Assembly (NCBI GenBank): GCA_030697855.1
Contig: JAUYOU010000053.1
Coordinates: 1 to 28,010, forward strand
Length of the DNA stretch: 28,010 bases
Source of the DNA: a bacterium
GTDB lineage: Bacteria > Patescibacteriota > Minisyncoccia > JACQLN01
Reading direction: 5' to 3'
In this document: piece by piece, positions 5,332-23,353 of the stretch
Numbering within the stretch: the stretch's first letter is position 1
Layout: each line of letters starts with the position of its first letter
Translations under genes and position numbers: made by a program
Notes under the pieces: generated by a model
Databases searched by the model: none
What the model saw: only the letters and a program-made list of their open reading frames with translations
What the model was told of the DNA's origin: nothing

Positions 5332-6051
5332 ATGATTTCTATTTTTAACGAATTTTTGTATCGCCCACTGTTTAATCTTTTGGTGTTTTTATACAACACT
5401 ATACCGGGTACCGATATAGGTATTGCCATAATTGCTGTAACAGCAGTTGTTAAGCTTGTTTTTTGGCCACTAACGGGTAAAGCAGTTAAATCCCAAAAAG
5501 CTTTGCAAGAGATTCAGCCTAAAATCAAAGAAATTCAGGAAAAATATAAAGACAATAAGGAAGAACAGTCCAGAAAATTGATGGAGTTTTATAAAGAAAA
5601 TAAAGTTAACCCAATGTCTGGGTGCTTTCCTTTGTTGGTTCAAATACCTATTCTTATTGCTTTATACCAAGTCTTTCTTAAAGGATTTGATCCTAAAAGT
5701 TTATCGAGTTTATATTATTTTGTTAGCAACCCAGGAGTTATTAACCCAATATTTTTGGGTTTTGTTAATTTAGCGCTACCAAATAGTATTTTTGCAATAT
5801 TGGCCGGTGTAAGCCAATTTTTTCAAGCAAAAATGACTATGCCTAAAAACAGTAAACTTCCTAATGCTCCAAAAAGTTCCGATGAATATATAACTCAAGC
5901 AATCTCTAAGCAAACTTTGTATTTTTTACCTGTGTTTACCGTTTTAATTTCTTGGAAATTACCTTCCGGACTCGCCCTTTATTGGGTAGTTACAACTTTA
6001 TTTACCCTGTTTCAGCAGTATGTTATTATGCGTTCCACTAGAGTTCGCTAA
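5332..6051 (+). CDS. yidC: YidC/Oxa1 membrane protein insertase (short form)
   Basis: LQEIQPKIKEIQEKYK, NPMSGCFPLLVQIPILIALYQVF and LPSGLALYWVVTTLF. Confidence 0.97.
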   Translation: MISIFNEFLYRPLFNLLVFLYNTIPGTDIGIAIIAVTAVVKLVFWPLTGKAVKSQKALQEIQPKIKEIQEKYKDNKEEQSRKLMEFYKENKVNPMSGCFPLLVQIPILIALYQVFLKGFDPKSLSSLYYFVSNPGVINPIFLGFVNLALPNSIFAILAGVSQFFQAKMTMPKNSKLPNAPKSSDEYITQAISKQTLYFLPVFTVLISWKLPSGLALYWVVTTLFTLFQQYVIMRSTRVR

Positions 6052-6124
6052 TATGGCTAATCGGTGCTAATATAGCGAATGAATTTTTATTAGCTATATT
6101 CGCGTCAATTCGTATATTAGCGAA
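6044..6124. repeat. Palindromic intergenic element of the acgaat/attcgt family (empty)
   Basis: 11-bp perfect terminal IR ttcgctaatat (6044-6054) / atattagcgaa (6114-6124), with internal gctaat/attagc and gcgaat/attcgc units. It contains the yidC stop codon. Confidence 0.8.
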
Positions 6125-6129
6125 AACTT

Positions 6130-6588: not shown

Positions 6589-6738
6589 ATTACAAAATAC
6601 AAATCCCAAATTACAAATAAGCACAAAATTCAAAATCCTAAACTCCTAAACTCCTAAACTCCTAAACTCAAAGCTTTGGATATTAGAATTTAGATATTAG
6701 AATTTGTTTGTGATTTGTTATTTGGTACTTGAGATTTG
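6589..6738. repeat. Inverted array of short repeats with an internal 8-mer tandem tract
   Basis: Left arm aaatacaaatcccaaattacaaat; (TCCTAAAC)x4 at 6636-6667; centre aaagcttt 6670-6677; gatattagaattt x2; right arm tttgtttgtgatttgttatttgg. Confidence 0.85.
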
Positions 6739-6740
6739 CT

Positions 6741-7874
6741 TTAAAGCGTTAAGCGATATAAACGCCCGTCTATTTTATTTATAAAGAATAAATATGTTTC
6801 GTCGGGCATAACAAATAAGTTTGAGGCATCAAAAGACCCCTCTATTATTTTTTGTATTTGCCCTGTTTCGGTGTTTATTCTAATGATTTCTTCTCCTTCT
6901 GAACGAACTCTCCTTTTGTAGTAGTCGTCGGGCATTATAAAGTTATCGGGATCGGTAACTTTAAACACAGAACATAATATTACCCTCTCGTCCTGTGTCC
7001 ATGTACATTTTTCGGGCAAGGAAAATAAATTAATGTTACTTTCTGTTTTTTTATCTAAATTTATACTAGAAAGTTTTAAACTGCGCCCTCCAGAATCTGT
7101 TTTGGAAACAAGGATTCTTTTTCCCGAAGGCGAAAAACTAGTGGTTAAGCCATATTCTCCACCCAAGACCCTAGTTGTTTTTTTGTTTTTAATATTAAGC
7201 AGGTAAACTATTCCAGTAGCAAAACCAGAAGGCTTTGTTTCTATAGATATATTATCCGCATTAACCCACTTTATTTTAATGTCCGGAATTTTTGTTGGGA
7301 TAATATCTTTATTTTTTGAAAACTCATCGTAATTTAAGGCTATTTTTTTGCCATTTCTATCGGAATAAACAATAGCCACCTCTTTGTTGCTGTTACCCAA
7401 CGAAACATCTTCTGTTTCTTGAGACAGGGTTTTTAAGGTTTTACTATTAACGTCGTATATTATAAATCTGGTAGCACCCGAAGCTAAACTATATTTAAAA
7501 GATAAAAGTTCGCCCGAACTAGAAACATTAACTTCGCCTATTCTATCTACTGCTACTAAGCCAATTTTGTTTTTGCCACCTCCATTTAAGCTAATTTGAT
7601 TTATACTGCCATCCCAAGCGGCATAAACAATCTTGCTTACCCCAGCTTCTTTGTCGGTTGTGTTAAGCCCAGCGCCTAAAACAGCCTCATCTGTTATAGG
7701 AATTAATCTTTCTTTGGCGTTTGGGGTTAATTCTCCTCCTAATAATTCTTCGTTGGTTGTTACTGGAGAAGTTTCTACGGTTTTTTTAAAGAAAAAATAA
7801 TATATACCAAAACCTATTAAGGTTAAGCCTAAAATTACGGCTAAAATTATTAATATTTTTTTTGATCTCGTCAT
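6741..7874 (-). CDS. Single-TM anchored exported protein, probable beta-propeller/TolB-like fold
   Basis: N-terminal TM (ILIILAVILGLTLIGFGIYYFFF); repeated beta-rich segments (FSPSGKRILVS, WTQDERVILC); conserved Cys pair. Confidence 0.6.
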   Translation of the reverse strand: MTRSKKILIILAVILGLTLIGFGIYYFFFKKTVETSPVTTNEELLGGELTPNAKERLIPITDEAVLGAGLNTTDKEAGVSKIVYAAWDGSINQISLNGGGKNKIGLVAVDRIGEVNVSSSGELLSFKYSLASGATRFIIYDVNSKTLKTLSQETEDVSLGNSNKEVAIVYSDRNGKKIALNYDEFSKNKDIIPTKIPDIKIKWVNADNISIETKPSGFATGIVYLLNIKNKKTTRVLGGEYGLTTSFSPSGKRILVSKTDSGGRSLKLSSINLDKKTESNINLFSLPEKCTWTQDERVILCSVFKVTDPDNFIMPDDYYKRRVRSEGEEIIRINTETGQIQKIIEGSFDASNLFVMPDETYLFFINKIDGRLYRLTL

Positions 7875-9933: not shown

Positions 9934-10338
9934 TTAAGATGTTTTGTTCATAATGTTTAGCACTTTTTCCATTTTCTTTTTTTCTCTGTTATGGGCTCGC
10001 CATACAAATAGCGACCAAAATGAGACAGCCGATAACCACGGTACAAATTCCACTACCGCCTTACCAATGAGTCTTTTGTAAATATATTTTTGGGATAAGC
10101 TTAAATTAGTATTCACATAAGCATAAATTAACGGCACCATAAACGTGTTTGTTATTATCCCGATTATTCCGAAGGTAAAAACGCCTAGTGCTTCTATTAT
10201 ATCTAAAATATCTTTAGTTAATGCGGCGGTAAAGATCATGATTGGAAAGACGGGTTCTTTAATATCGCCGTTTTTAACACTCTCAATCTCCTCTTCTGTT
10301 AAGCCCTCGGCAGTTAATTCGGCTAGTTCATTATCCAT
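9934..10338 (-). CDS. Small membrane hypothetical protein
   Basis: Hydrophobic segments and KDILDII / VEFVPWLSAVSFWSLFVW. ATG at 10338 is preferred over TTG at 10350. Confidence 0.7.
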   Translation of the reverse strand: MDNELAELTAEGLTEEEIESVKNGDIKEPVFPIMIFTAALTKDILDIIEALGVFTFGIIGIITNTFMVPLIYAYVNTNLSLSQKYIYKRLIGKAVVEFVPWLSAVSFWSLFVWRAHNREKKKMEKVLNIMNKTS

Positions 10339-10344
10339 AATAAT

Positions 10345-10444
10345 ATGCAAATCTACGAATGCATACGAATCATACTAATGACTTCACAAATTCGTCTTCT
10401 ATTCGCATTATTCGTATCATTCGCATAGATTCGTATATTGGTAT
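10345..10444 (+). repeat. Empty palindromic element matching both ends of the GxxExxY cassette
   Basis: 10345-10381 matches revcomp 13546-13582 at 30/37, and 10410-10444 matches revcomp 13180-13214 at 32/35. Confidence 0.9.
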
Positions 10445-10447
10445 ATT

Positions 10448-12223
10448 TTATTTCTGCTGTTCTGCTAGTTCCTTCTTAGCGGCTTCTATCTCTAATAACT
10501 GTGCTGGGTCCGATGTTATTACTTGGTCTTCTGTGTACGACGCCACAACTTTTATGGCGGCACGCTTTAAACCTGCTAAAAATATTCCTTCGCCTACGTT
10601 AGATTCCAACAGTAAAAACTTTTCTTCGTCTGTTAAATTAAATGTTTGAGCAACCATGTCTATAGCCGCCGGAGACTGTTTTAACAGTATTTGAAGGGCG
10701 GAGTTAGTTACAATCGGCTTGCCATACTGCGATTTCATAAAGTCCTCTACATCTTGGGTTATAGTGGTTAATCCTAAGTAATATTTGCGACATCTTTTAG
10801 CTATACTAAACAAAAATGCTCCAGCTTCTTGGTGTTGCATCATCCACCAAGCCTCGTCCACCACCATTATCCTCTTTTTTCTTTGTGTTCTTATTAAATT
10901 CCAAACATAGTGAAGTAAAATATACATAGCTACTGGGCGAAGTTCTGGTTCAAGGTCTCTTATAGAAAAAACAACAAGGTTATTATTTAAAGTTACGTTT
11001 GTTGGTTGGTTTAAAAACCCAGAAAATGTTCCTGTAACATATTTTTCTATACGAATGGCTAATTTTTCTGCGCCCTGCATATTTTTTAATACAGTGTGTA
11101 AATCGCCCATTAATGGAACCTGCTTACCTCGCCAATCGGAATTTATGCTTATGTCGCGCGACGCATATGTTTCGGTTAAGGCCTTGTCTATAATCGAATC
11201 TTCCTCGGGTGTTAGTTGGCCCAGCATTACTTTTAGTAAGCCGGTAAGTTCTATAATATTAGATTTTAAAATTTCGGCTGGGCTTTCGTCTTCGCCTGGT
11301 GTGGTTAAATCGAATGGGTTTATATGGTTAGAAGAAGTTAAAGAAATATTTACAAAGGTTCCGCCTACTACATCGTTTAAATATTTATACTCGCTTTCGG
11401 GGTCGATAATAATTACATCGGTCCCAAGCATTAAAGAACGTAAAACTTCTAGCTTTACGGTGTAGCTTTTTCCAGAGCCAGATTTAGCAAAAACAACTGT
11501 ATTGGCGTTTTCCAAAGAAAATCTGTCAAAAAGTATAAGGCTATTGTTGTGTCTGTTTATGCCGTAAAGCACCCCTTTATTAGATGTAAGATCTGCAGAA
11601 ACAAAAGGAAAGAAAGAAGAAAGCGGACCAGTATTTAAACTGTTATGTACCTGAAGCTTATCTAGGTTTAAAGGCAGTGTAGATGTATAGCCTTCTTGTT
11701 GTTGAAATACCGCAACTTTAGAGTAAATTAATTTTGATTCTAGAATAGTATTTATCTTGTTTTCTACATCATCTAATTCCTTAACAGATGACGCATAAAA
11801 AGTTATATATAAACCAGCTCTAAAAAATCTTTCGGTGCCTTGTTGCAATTTATCGCGTAAGGATTCTAAATCTTGGTATGCGGTTTCTAACATTGGGTCG
11901 CGAATATAGCCCCCTTCTTCTTTTTCCGACATCTGCGCACCAATTTGAGCTGTTTTTTTAGTTAGTTTTTTTAGAACTGGGCCGGTTTCCGAAGGTTCAA
12001 TAAATAAAGAAACGTCGAAGGTTTTATCTAGGTTAATAATTGGCGAAAACCAGCCAACGCTTAAAAAACGTGGGTAAGCTGCTACAAACAATGTTCTAGA
12101 AAATTTATCACCTATTTGCAAATTAGAAGGGTTAACTTGCAAAGCAGGTGGAGCCAAAAGATCTTCTAGGCTACCGGCCGAGGAAATTTGTTGGTTTTTA
12201 GGTTCTGTATTTTGTTGATCCAT
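10448..12223 (-). CDS. virB4: VirB4-like T4SS ATPase
   Basis: Walker A variant FAKSGSGKS, VIIIDPESEY, INPFD, LVVFSIRDL, Walker B VVDEAWWMM, and RCRKYYLGLTTITQDVEDF. Confidence 0.9.
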   Translation of the reverse strand: MDQQNTEPKNQQISSAGSLEDLLAPPALQVNPSNLQIGDKFSRTLFVAAYPRFLSVGWFSPIINLDKTFDVSLFIEPSETGPVLKKLTKKTAQIGAQMSEKEEGGYIRDPMLETAYQDLESLRDKLQQGTERFFRAGLYITFYASSVKELDDVENKINTILESKLIYSKVAVFQQQEGYTSTLPLNLDKLQVHNSLNTGPLSSFFPFVSADLTSNKGVLYGINRHNNSLILFDRFSLENANTVVFAKSGSGKSYTVKLEVLRSLMLGTDVIIIDPESEYKYLNDVVGGTFVNISLTSSNHINPFDLTTPGEDESPAEILKSNIIELTGLLKVMLGQLTPEEDSIIDKALTETYASRDISINSDWRGKQVPLMGDLHTVLKNMQGAEKLAIRIEKYVTGTFSGFLNQPTNVTLNNNLVVFSIRDLEPELRPVAMYILLHYVWNLIRTQRKKRIMVVDEAWWMMQHQEAGAFLFSIAKRCRKYYLGLTTITQDVEDFMKSQYGKPIVTNSALQILLKQSPAAIDMVAQTFNLTDEEKFLLLESNVGEGIFLAGLKRAAIKVVASYTEDQVITSDPAQLLEIEAAKKELAEQQK

Positions 12224-12225
12224 AT

Positions 12226-12894
12226 TTATTCTGGTTTTTTAGCTTCATCTCCTGTTGCTATTAATGCCTCCAAATTTTTTTGTTTAACCTCTGCCCCAGG
12301 GTTGTAAGATGTATATAAGAGCTCTATTAAACCTTCTTTTTCTAGCGGAACTGCTTTTAAACCCATAGAACTTAGTAAGCTTGTTACCTGATCCATTCTT
12401 TGCTGAAGAGTATTTTTTTGTGTTTCAAAATTTAAATCTTTTTGGTTTTGGGCTGATGCTTTGTTTTTATAAAAAAACTTAGAGAAAAACCCTGTTTCTA
12501 GTATCTGCACGGTACTTAATGGAATTATTACATAAAAAAACTTAGACATCACATTGGTAAGCTTAATTAGTTCTTGAATAAAATTTACATATTCCGAAGT
12601 CTGTATTTTAAGAAGTTCGTTGGTTTGTATACCTATTCTCTCGTTTAAAAATTTTAAATATTCCGAAATATCTAATTTCCTTGATTGAACTAATATTTGA
12701 ACAGGAAAATCTATAGAATTTATAAAACCCTGAAACCTATCGATTATGGCTGTTTGTTCGTCGCTAGATTTTAAAGCAAAATTTATGGAAGACACCATCA
12801 AAACAGCGCGTAAACCGCCATTTTTTAAAACAATGACTCCGTCTTTGATCTCTTTAGCCTCTATTAATTGATGGGTTGATGAAGTATTTGCCAT
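12226..12894 (-). CDS. TraC-like/VirB4-associated protein
   Basis: GLRAVLMVSSINFALKS, FINSIDFPVQILVQSRKLDI and KFFYVIIP; lies between prgI and virB4. Confidence 0.65.
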   Translation of the reverse strand: MANTSSTHQLIEAKEIKDGVIVLKNGGLRAVLMVSSINFALKSSDEQTAIIDRFQGFINSIDFPVQILVQSRKLDISEYLKFLNERIGIQTNELLKIQTSEYVNFIQELIKLTNVMSKFFYVIIPLSTVQILETGFFSKFFYKNKASAQNQKDLNFETQKNTLQQRMDQVTSLLSSMGLKAVPLEKEGLIELLYTSYNPGAEVKQKNLEALIATGDEAKKPE

Positions 12895-12895
12895 T

Positions 12896-13174
12896 TTATT
12901 TTTTCTTCCACAAGTATAATTGCGGTTTTAACGAAAACTTAATAAACGACGATATATATTTTAATGCTGGTATGCCTTTAATTTTACCAAACGCTAGTAT
13001 TATGGCGGCTAAAGCCACGGGAATAGAAAGTGTTATAGCAAAAGCTGTGGTAAGTGTTTTTAAAAATATAAAACAAAGTACGCCAGCAACAGCCACAAAA
13101 CCAAACTGTTTTAAAGTTAACGGGCCTATTATTTTATCTTCTATTTCTATAAATTGTGGTACTTGGAACTGCAT
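12896..13174 (-). CDS. prgI: PrgI family (VirB3-like) membrane protein
   Basis: MQFQVPQFIEIEDKIIGPLTLKQF signature and two TM helices. Confidence 0.88.
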   Translation of the reverse strand: MQFQVPQFIEIEDKIIGPLTLKQFGFVAVAGVLCFIFLKTLTTAFAITLSIPVALAAIILAFGKIKGIPALKYISSFIKFSLKPQLYLWKKK

Positions 13175-13179
13175 AAAAT

Positions 13180-13582
13180 ATACTAATTTACGAATCTATG
13201 CGAATTATACGAATAGGTTTTAAATACTTGCTTCTAAAATTTACTAATATACCTAATTTTATTTTATGATCTTGAAGATATCTCTGTGTTTGTGTAAAAT
13301 GTTCTCTTAAAACAAACGGGGTAGCTTTAATTTCCAATATTATTTTGTTGTCTATTACAAAATCGGGTATATTTTTAAGCGATGTTTCTTTTTCTCTTAT
13401 GTAATTAATCTTAGCATCTTTCAGTAATGACTCTATTGCATCAGAATACTGTTTCTCCCTACAAAATCTTTCCAACTCGTTATGTACTTTAAAAAGAATC
13501 CCATTTATTTTATAAGAAAGTTCTTTGTATATAATTTTCGTGTCTTCATTTGTATAATTCGTACCCATTCGCATATTGGCAT
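13180..13582 (-). mobile_element. Palindrome-bounded GxxExxY gene cassette (filled form)
   Basis: Inverted acgaat/attcgt arrays at 13180-13214 and 13546-13582 overlap the gene ends. An empty counterpart sits at 10345-10444. Confidence 0.6.
13188..13574 (-). CDS. GxxExxY family PD-(D/E)XK nuclease-like protein
   Basis: LFKVHNELERFCREKQY (ExxY kept, G replaced), DFVIDNKIILEIKA, QTQRYL and LGILVNF. The start may be ATG at 13568. Confidence 0.88.
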   Translation of the reverse strand: MRMGTNYTNEDTKIIYKELSYKINGILFKVHNELERFCREKQYSDAIESLLKDAKINYIREKETSLKNIPDFVIDNKIILEIKATPFVLREHFTQTQRYLQDHKIKLGILVNFRSKYLKPIRIIRIDS

Positions 13583-13583
13583 A

Positions 13584-14300
13584 CTATGTAAAGAAGCTAT
13601 TATATTTATTAACCCTCTTCATCATTTTACCTTTTTTTGGGTTGTTTGGTCTTATATTGCGAGAAAAATAAAACGAAGCAGGCTTAGCTGGAGGTGTTTG
13701 TTGTCTTATTTTGTTTAATACCTCATCTCTTCTTTTTTGCGCGTCGTTGTAATTTGGTTGGTATGCTGGTGGTGTAAGTTTAACAGGTTGCTGTGCCGCT
13801 CCGTAGTTTCTGGACGGCGGAGTTTGAGATCTTTGCTGTGTTTGAGGTGGTGAGGCTTGATACTGTTGGTTTTGATTTACCGCGTATTGTTTGTAATTTG
13901 TATTTTGTGTATTTGTGTTTTCACTCGTTATCCCATGCACCTGCATTAAACTTACTCTTACTGGTTGGAATATTGTTTGGTTTATATCTTGAGCAATCGC
14001 TTGAGCTTTTGTAATATCTATATTTAATTTATTTTTTAATTCGGCAATAAAGTTTTTAATTGGTAATTCACCTAAAAATATTAAGCCGATTATTCTGGCC
14101 ACCTTACTTACATCTCTATCTGCTAAATCATATTTTATTTTAGCAATATCCCACACACTATTACTGGTCTGCTCGCTTTCAAAAGAATTTTGTAAATCTT
14201 GGGGTAACTGAAACAAAACGGAAAAACGGCGCCTAGCCACAGGGTCCGAAACTTGGTTTAATTGTTCTATTTGGTCTAACGTTATTTGTTGGTTGTTCAT
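13584..14300 (-). CDS. Hypothetical protein with helical N-terminal domain and Q/P/N-rich disordered tail
   Basis: ORF track; LPQDLQ...GLIFLGEL...IFQPVR domain followed by low-complexity sequence. Confidence 0.7.
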   Translation of the reverse strand: MNNQQITLDQIEQLNQVSDPVARRRFSVLFQLPQDLQNSFESEQTSNSVWDIAKIKYDLADRDVSKVARIIGLIFLGELPIKNFIAELKNKLNIDITKAQAIAQDINQTIFQPVRVSLMQVHGITSENTNTQNTNYKQYAVNQNQQYQASPPQTQQRSQTPPSRNYGAAQQPVKLTPPAYQPNYNDAQKRRDEVLNKIRQQTPPAKPASFYFSRNIRPNNPKKGKMMKRVNKYNSFFT

Positions 14301-20016: not shown

Positions 20017-20443
20017 AAGCTTTTTAGGTGTTAGCTTTCTAGCTTCTTAGTTTATTAACCATTGAATTTAACATTCTCATTACTTCGTCTAGCAGGGTAT
20101 CAACCTTTGAATAATTTAGAGGTGCTGTTTTCGGCAATCTCTTCGCTATTTCTATTTGAGTTTCTAATTCGCCTCCCGAAGCAAATGCAGTTAACAGGAA
20201 TTGTCTAAATTCTTTGCGGTAACCACGCATTCTACCCTCAGCGATGTTTGAGGGAACTGATACGGATGCCCGCCTCATTTGTGAAGTTAGTCCGAATATT
20301 TCTTCTCGGGGAAACTTTTCTGTTAACTCATAAATAGCCACAACTAACTCAAGCGATTTCTGCCAGACAATCAATTGTTTATATGAATGAATCAACACAG
20401 ATTTTTCTAGGAAGCTAATATCCTAGAAAGCTAATAAGCTATT
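20017..20443 (-). mobile_element. Palindrome-bounded four-helix-bundle cassette (filled form)
   Basis: Left arm ttagctttctagcttcttag (20031-20050) and right arm ctaggaagctaatatcctagaaagctaataagcta (20407-20441). An empty counterpart sits at 23297-23353. Confidence 0.6.
20039..20398 (-). CDS. Four helix bundle protein (S23/23S rRNA IVP, bAvd-like family)
   Basis: SYKQLIVWQKS, FPREEIFGLTSQMRRASVSVPSNIAEG, FLLTAFASGGELETQ. Confidence 0.95.
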   Translation of the reverse strand: MLIHSYKQLIVWQKSLELVVAIYELTEKFPREEIFGLTSQMRRASVSVPSNIAEGRMRGYRKEFRQFLLTAFASGGELETQIEIAKRLPKTAPLNYSKVDTLLDEVMRMLNSMVNKLRS

Positions 20444-23296: not shown

Positions 23297-23353
23297 AAGC
23301 TTCTTAGCTTTCTAGCTTCCTAGTAAGCTAATTCCTAAAAAGCTAAAAGCTAG
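23297..23353. repeat. Empty palindromic element matching both ends of the four-helix-bundle cassette
   Basis: 23304-23323 matches 20031-20050 at 19/20. 23325-23352 matches 20412-20441 with two 1-nt indels and one substitution. Confidence 0.9.

Follow-up and report, generated by a model that had tools for sequence, protein, structure and literature searches.

What connects a nuclease gene with a gene-less palindrome that carries the same ends, and could the nuclease act on those ends? This question is raised by a window of 28,010 nt (contig JAUYOU010000053.1 of GenBank assembly GCA_030697855.1), which is one contig of the 685-kb, 92-contig genome (G000) of a groundwater bacterium of the Candidate Phyla Radiation (CPR/Patescibacteria). 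On its minus strand the window holds a type IV secretion-like operon with the order 760-aa gene, 238-aa gene (p238), GxxExxY gene, PrgI-like gene, N-terminal and C-terminal open reading frames (ORFs) of a VirB4-like gene, and 134-aa gene (p138). The GxxExxY gene, encoding a putative PD-(D/E)XK nuclease, sits in a cassette between two pairing arms, and 3 kb away a 104-nt element without the gene has arms of the same design. The best explanation as a whole, which we adopt tentatively and at somewhat less than an even chance, is that the cassette belongs to a conserved family of palindrome-armed GxxExxY cassettes, that the 104-nt element is a copied, gene-less deletion derivative, and that the nuclease would act on the arms.

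The cassette is a 409-nt insert on the minus strand (13175-13583) that occupies the space between p238, with its stop codon at 13584-13586, and the PrgI-like gene, whose ATG is at 13174. It contains an intact gene of 128 aa (13188-13574, minus strand), which was assigned to the GxxExxY and PD-(D/E)XK families from the TIGR04256 and PF13366 profiles, conserved columns, AlphaFold2 and Foldseek. The 5' arm (13548-13583, minus strand) consists of the words GCCAAT, GCGAAT, ACGAAT and ACAAAT, and the 3' arm (13179-13214, minus strand) is a mirror array of four such words, as judged from repeat pairing and word positions; the repeat finder aligns the two arms as inverted copies over 36 nt at 75% identity. 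The gene-less palindromic element (10343-10446, without assigned strand) fills the interval that separates the VirB4-like gene, which ends with its stop codon at 10448-10450, from the next gene, whose ATG is at 10336-10338. Its left arm (10347-10379, plus strand) reads GCAAAT, ACGAAT, ACGAAT and ACTAAT, its right arm (10410-10442, minus strand) again has four words, and alignment of the copies with the cassette ends, together with the word list, shows that the loop between them (10380-10409) consists of about 20 nt that are similar to the codons directly following the cassette 5' arm, together with two extra inner words. All four arms, two per element, are built of four 6-nt NCNAAT words at spacings of 8, 10 and 9 nt. 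The start codon of the nuclease gene lies between words of the 5' arm, and its last eight codons (IRIIRIDS) and stop codon lie within the 3' arm; this placement of start and stop codons inside the arms explains the TN.TN... and ...IRIIRI termini of the protein. An earlier note on this DNA had proposed that the protein ends are encoded by the repeat arms, and on this point it was right, as it was in the translations it quoted. Its two matches, 30/37 between 10345-10381 and the reverse complement of 13546-13582 and 32/35 between 10410-10444 and the reverse complement of 13180-13214, were likewise reproduced exactly, whereas the extents it had taken from them fall short of the true bounds, which are those of the 104-nt element and the 409-nt insert given above.

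Chance similarity of intergenic DNA deserves consideration for an AT-rich genome, yet the probability that it accounts for these repeats is practically nil, since the sequence, pattern and shuffle controls already refute it. At the 3' end the cassette and the small element match at 40 of 43 nt (93%; repeat finder; 10409-10451 and 13173-13215), for which BLAST gives E = 1.7e-11 against the 685-kb genome. A 14-nt arm pattern matched six times in the window versus 0.17 times expected, and a 25-nt three-word arm pattern, which we ran on 61 genomes with the reversed pattern as control, gave 10 matches in G000 while the control gave 0 in all 61. The small element, whose two 33-nt inverted arms enclose no credible ORF, folds as one hairpin (-30.8 kcal/mol, z = -3.5), and 0/200 shuffles folded as well. 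A plus-strand ORF of 96 codons (10359-10649; MHTNHTN...) does start within the small element and runs antisense to the VirB4-like gene; this is most likely a by-product of the stop-free arm words and not a gene.

The history of the cassette can be followed at the junction between p238 and the PrgI-like gene, which we compared between G000 and eight relatives from the same GTDB family (G002-G009). The p238 stop and the PrgI start are kept in all eight, and the DNA between them differs. In G004 and G003 the two codons are 1 nt apart, where G000 has its 409-nt cassette. In G006 (140 nt) and G009 (205 nt) the gap is taken up by a remnant of this cassette that retains the arms and the first ~30 codons, and in G009 also the last ~20 codons. 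The same junction holds in G007 and G005 a 119-aa four-helix-bundle gene with different arms, in G002 an arm-only remnant of that cassette, and in G008 a further four-helix-bundle gene whose arms are of a third type. The tree of the flanking proteins has these states in scattered positions, and the nearest relative, G004 (99% identical in the C-terminal VirB4 protein), is empty. The homologues most similar to the nuclease (85% and 82% aa identity) occupy the same p238|PrgI junction in aquifer metagenome contigs. No target-site duplication of at least 3 nt was present in three filled/empty comparisons with G004, in which the AT-rich ends make 1-2 nt unreadable. Altogether, the compared junctions bear the clear marks of insertion of elements, of their decay by internal deletion and of their copying, and the unit concerned consists of arm, ORF and mirror arm, placed precisely between a stop codon and the next start codon on the strand of the operon.

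The genes beside such junctions stand out as well. Between G000 and G004, p238 (13584-14300) is 62% identical at the amino acid level and the gene at 9934-10338 is 42% identical, versus 93-99% for the rest of the operon. Because the junction-side genes are so much more diverged than the genes between them, this suggests that recombination tracts end at the hairpin elements. Two side observations concern the same operon and window. The VirB4-like ATPase (10448-12894) is split in 9/9 genomes compared, in G000 into an N-terminal ORF at 12226-12894 and a C-terminal ORF at 10448-12223, and hairpin elements of 104-141 nt lie exactly at the VirB4 split in G005, G002, G009 and G008. At 20039-20398 the window has a four-helix-bundle (PF05635) gene between CTAG-rich inverted arms, with a gene-less copy at 23304-23352 and a layout like that of the GxxExxY cassette.

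Gene-less copies of the small element are not confined to this operon. G000 has five full ones and two partial ones, which retain the ~20 nt with similarity to the codons that come first after the 5' arm. Two of the copies, on contigs C29 and C62, are identical at 103/104 positions, a sign of recent copying, and each sits between a stop and a start codon; both of their junctions are empty in G004, where the flanks are 86-95% identical, and are occupied by unrelated hairpin elements in G003 and G007. The junction of the small element in the window spans 4 nt in G006, has overlapping genes in G009, and contains unrelated hairpins in G003, G007, G005, G002 and G008. The shared arms, the ~20 nt of 5' coding sequence and the remnants in G006 and G009 indicate that cassette and small element belong to one family, in which the small one is a deletion derivative. 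The pairing that the earlier note had called autonomous and non-autonomous is borne out to this extent; the dependence of the small element on the gene, which the term also implies, is not. Over the 61 genomes, at least one arm match was found in 5/7 with an intact gene of this subfamily versus 11/54 without it (kinship among the genomes makes these statistics soft), so that arm copy number tracks the gene only loosely. In contigs of three groundwater metagenome runs, the bins containing arms (10341-10487 and 13134-13280) reached 3-40 times the depth of neighbouring sequence, with many different flanks, which means that the arm family is abundant in the community. The assembled metagenome contigs that were inspected for excision in the population, in which the arm bins stood at 20-40 times the local depth, contained no clean joint; a single contig from another run of the study, which joins 13175 to 13702, was too weak and was not used.

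To what extent the arms belong to the gene was judged from 80 fetched loci of this GxxExxY subfamily, 79 of them scorable, whose source genomes carry labels such as Kaiser-, Falkow-, Zambryski-, Nomura-, Vogel- and Harrisonbacteria and Paceibacterota. In 74/79 loci the two flanks match as inverted repeats better than the 95th percentile of a within-gene control, a positive outcome for the check proposed in the earlier note, which was to look for inverted acgaat/attcgt arrays beside GxxExxY genes of Patescibacteria. Exactly four words are present in 106/148 arms, spacings are almost only 8, 9 or 10 nt, and the words are mostly CGAAT/ATTCG or CTAAT/ATTAG. The 37-nt consensus of the 5' arm over the 74 loci, which the arm in the window fits, is cgATaCnAATATACgAATGnATaCgAATgATACgAAT. 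Usage of CGAAT versus CTAAT is correlated between the 5' and 3' arms (r = 0.62), and lineages with CTAAT use it in both. Each gene also appears to go with its own variant of the repeat. The second GxxExxY gene of G000 (contig C25, cassette at 6716-7200) has different arms (GCTAAT/GCGAAT) and its own set of ~14 gene-less arm matches, and in G025, from another family, an intact gene (203 bits) is accompanied by 28 arm matches, with the lineage-specific middle word ACTAAT common to the cassette and the gene-less copies. The window itself contains a gene-less hairpin at 6044-6126, just upstream of a Jag/EloR-like gene, whose arms match the C25 cassette and which makes up a third filled/empty pair.

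The phased arrays could be read without reference to the nuclease, as sites at which a DNA-binding factor of the host docks and plays a regulatory or architectural part, the gene simply lying within one of them. A spacing near one helical turn would suit such a function, and single arms do occur upstream of genes in G004. We nevertheless regard this as highly improbable, since nearly all arrays are inverted pairs, their presence or absence differs between close relatives at junctions inside an operon, and the arrays are tied to one protein subfamily.

The survey also revealed a strict orientation. The gene has the same orientation as both neighbours in 52 loci and is opposed to both in 0, and it agrees with the upstream gene in 63/67 loci; this agreement fits expression by read-through from the operon. 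Such a strand bias, together with start and stop codons that lie in the pairing arms, would also be expected of an RNA-level element resembling an rRNA intervening sequence, in which the arms would form a stem in the operon transcript, RNase III would cleave it, the message would be released or insulated, and the gene-less hairpins would serve as intercistronic processing or stabilising sites. The genome has an RNase III gene, and the sister cargo family encodes the protein known from intervening sequences of 23S rRNA. We consider this explanation very unlikely all the same. Among 18 operon junction hairpins the sense strand is the more stable in 8 and the antisense strand in 10, with 46 versus 71 G-U pairs, and the fold of the whole cassette is no better than that of shuffled sequences (z = -0.9). 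Moreover, no Rfam family matches any of the hairpins, no rRNA is present in the window or at the four-helix-bundle loci, and the copying of elements to new junctions would be left unexplained.

Some relatives of the cassette are found inside genes. GxxExxY cassettes lie in frame and without stop codons within LepA and RecG (L046 on contig C10 of G007; L049 on contig C4 and L054 on contig C5 of G008). The LepA insert is placed between the GITIK switch region and DTPGH, the RecG insert between helicase motifs II and III, and a second, gene-less arm insert is also present in frame in LepA of G008 and G007. LepA and RecG of G000 (contigs C30 and C47) are without insert. An intein can be dismissed here, as there is no Cys/Ser/Thr or His-Asn at the junctions.

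The cassette protein is a genuine member of the GxxExxY/PF13366 family. It scores 67 bits against the NCBIfam GxxExxY profile TIGR04256 (cut-off 35; residues 18-122) and 66.6 bits against PF13366 (PDDEXK_3; cut-off 22), the latter being its sole Pfam match. Over 48 homologues E40, D71 and K83 are invariant and E81 is kept in at least 90%, while the G of the motif that gives the family its name is substituted in this protein. The C-terminal KPIRIIRIDS is conserved across the subfamily. A search by sequence against solved structures returned no match for the protein; the AlphaFold2 model (pLDDT 90.5) has its nearest solved folds, as found by Foldseek, in Cas4 SSO0001, lambda exonuclease, Hjc resolvases and tRNA-splicing endonucleases, with TM-scores of 0.45-0.53. 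Similarity at this level to such varied nucleases points to a minimal PD-(D/E)XK core and indicates no particular substrate.

How long the cassette has been at its junction can be estimated from the flanking genes. The nuclease is 85% identical at the amino acid level to its homologue in contig L085, where the flanking p238, PrgI and VirB4N proteins are 55-65% identical by codon alignment and VirB4C is also ~85% identical; by tblastn, p238, PrgI and VirB4N are 46-65% identical in the aquifer contigs that have the closest nuclease homologues. The fraction of identical codons at conserved residues is 0.59 for the nuclease gene versus 0.38-0.57 for the flanks. From these values, the cassette is old at the junction and not the product of a recent transfer. 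Recent horizontal transfer of the cassette is ruled out, its synonymous sites being as diverged as those of the flanks. The aligned sequences likewise provide clear evidence that the nuclease is under purifying selection, with its predicted catalytic residues intact.

This age bears on the possibility of homing, in which the nuclease would cut unoccupied junctions or gene-less palindromes, the gene would be copied in by repair, and the empty, filled, decayed and lost states would make up a homing life cycle. All four states are indeed met at one junction, the same junction is occupied in distant relatives, related cassettes are inserted in frame into conserved sites within LepA and RecG that are empty in G000, and the gene splits a palindrome. 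Homing is nevertheless quite unlikely in our view, because the empty junction consists of a stop codon, 1 nt and a start codon and has no palindrome, because the synonymous divergence speaks for long vertical residence and not for recent invasion, and because the gene-less copies multiply without the gene.

Under the explanation we prefer, in which the nuclease acts on the arms of its own cassette, the cassette would be expressed by read-through from the host operon. The nuclease would recognise the phased words in the arms of its own cassette, be they in hairpin, cruciform or single-stranded form, and would cut there. Repair of the break against other arm-bearing copies could then spread, convert or precisely remove full and gene-less copies, as has been proposed for RAYT/REP. 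That the nuclease itself moves the elements is a step that we only infer, and several observations weigh against it. The earlier note had expected the empty copies to depend on the gene, and on this point it is not supported: G009 combines 20 three-word arm matches (29 with a looser pattern) with no more than a gene remnant, 13 matches are present in G007, which lacks a cassette of this subfamily, and 4-5 in each of G004, G003 and G010, which lack any GxxExxY gene; conversely, G011 and G016 carry the gene and have zero arm matches. The four-helix-bundle cassettes encode no nuclease and yet share the layout and even the junction, so that the layout does not need a GxxExxY enzyme. The filled, empty and replaced states could also be swapped by ordinary homologous recombination after DNA uptake, no target-site duplication was seen, and the 3' arm is partly constrained by the conserved C-terminus for which it codes. 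Finally, the products of three RAYT-like genes in G000 could act on hairpins as well.

These points lead to the principal rival, in which the hairpins are moved, exchanged and deleted through processes of the host or through other enzymes (recombination following the uptake of DNA, replication slippage at palindromes, RAYT-type transposases), and the genes for GxxExxY and four-helix-bundle proteins are cargo that has its own task in the cell. For the nuclease this task might be that of an Ssn-like enzyme which cuts incoming arm-bearing single-stranded DNA and so tunes recombination nearby. We doubt this explanation, yet it is a possibility that has to be taken seriously: two unrelated cargo families share one layout and one junction, arms abound where the gene is missing, purifying selection on the nuclease is strong, and the junction-side genes are hypervariable, as are the genes beside dRS3/NTS repeats in Neisseria (PMC11893778). 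The presence of three RAYT-like Y1 transposase genes (PF01797; C42:4983-5219, C47:1520-1768 and C52:8988-9218) in a 685-kb genome fits as well. Against it, each of them is bracketed by its own short GC-rich hairpin, unlike the arms; this difference in repeats rules out RAYT as the cognate enzyme of the cassette. Also difficult to reconcile with passive cargo are the tie between arm design and protein subfamily across distant lineages and the lineage-specific word variants that are common to cassette and gene-less copies.

A bolder form of the preferred explanation would assign to GxxExxY proteins the mobilisation of palindromic elements that make up a large class so far undescribed; each protein would be a nuclease of ~125 aa that reads four phased words per arm, cuts the hairpin or cruciform, and drives copying, conversion and precise loss. 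The elements in question are those set between a stop codon and a start codon, or in frame within genes, without target duplication. We think it unlikely that the claim holds at this breadth. Literature searches on GxxExxY, PF13366 and palindromic repeats in Patescibacteria gave no description of this layout. GxxExxY/PF13366 is a very large family without an assigned function, for which the fixed partnership with arms offers a concrete candidate substrate. If the nuclease does act on the arms, it would represent the third enzyme fold to be found between dispersed hairpin repeats of its own, the first two being those of the HUH transposase RAYT and the GIY-YIG nuclease Ssn, and the family would supply many natural enzyme-site pairs and possible tools. 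For ultra-small CPR genomes, the comparison identifies operon junctions as hot spots at which elements are gained, decay and are replaced, the genes beside them being more diverged.

Among known systems, bacterial REP/RAYT (repetitive extragenic palindromic, REPIN) elements are similar in several respects: a single-copy gene for a DNA-cutting enzyme (putative in the case of GxxExxY) lies between inverted hairpin repeats, many gene-less copies are dispersed between genes, target duplications are lacking, and each gene has its own repeat family. The enzyme of the cassette is, however, of the PD-(D/E)XK type (PF13366) and not an HUH Y1 transposase (PF01797), and REP repeats are GC-rich palindromes of 20-40 nt with a GTAG or CGTC tag (PMC3733652), whereas the cassette arms are AT-rich four-word arrays of 36-45 nt that include start and stop codons. 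The NTS/Ssn system resembles the cassette in having a gene for a small single-domain nuclease, hairpin repeats that are found on both sides of it and dispersed, many enzyme-repeat pairs, and unusually diverged neighbours. Ssn proteins are GIY-YIG single-strand nucleases that cut their own NTS repeat, for which the authors report a role in natural transformation and not the spreading of copies (PMC11893778). Fold and repeats are thus different from those of the PD-(D/E)XK cassette, whose arms pair with each other around the gene and whose gene-less copies are deletion products.

The remaining parallels are more partial. Intervening sequences of 23S rRNA (S23p/four-helix-bundle, PF05635) likewise have a small ORF within a long-range stem, and the same cargo is present at the p238|PrgI junction in relatives and at 20039-20398, but the cassettes are located between protein genes or in frame within them instead of in an rRNA helix, and they have no sense-strand RNA signature. 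The 104-nt element, being short, non-coding and bounded by terminal inverted repeats at a gene junction, looks like a bacterial MITE (miniature inverted-repeat transposable element), from which it differs in the absence of a target duplication and in its parent, which exists at full length and is linked to it by deletion remnants but encodes a protein that is not a known transposase. Rickettsia palindromic elements are also short, palindromic, non-coding copies, and the likeness extends from copies at junctions to those that, in relatives of G000, lie in frame within LepA and RecG. Free-standing homing endonuclease genes are exemplified by the phage seg/mob genes, and PD-(D/E)XK enzymes with a homing function by I-Ssp6803I. 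Like these, the cassette is a small nuclease gene located between conserved genes, and relatives have its site empty, filled or decayed; unlike them, it has palindromic word-array arms, gene-less copies that have spread elsewhere, and a long vertical residence at its junction.

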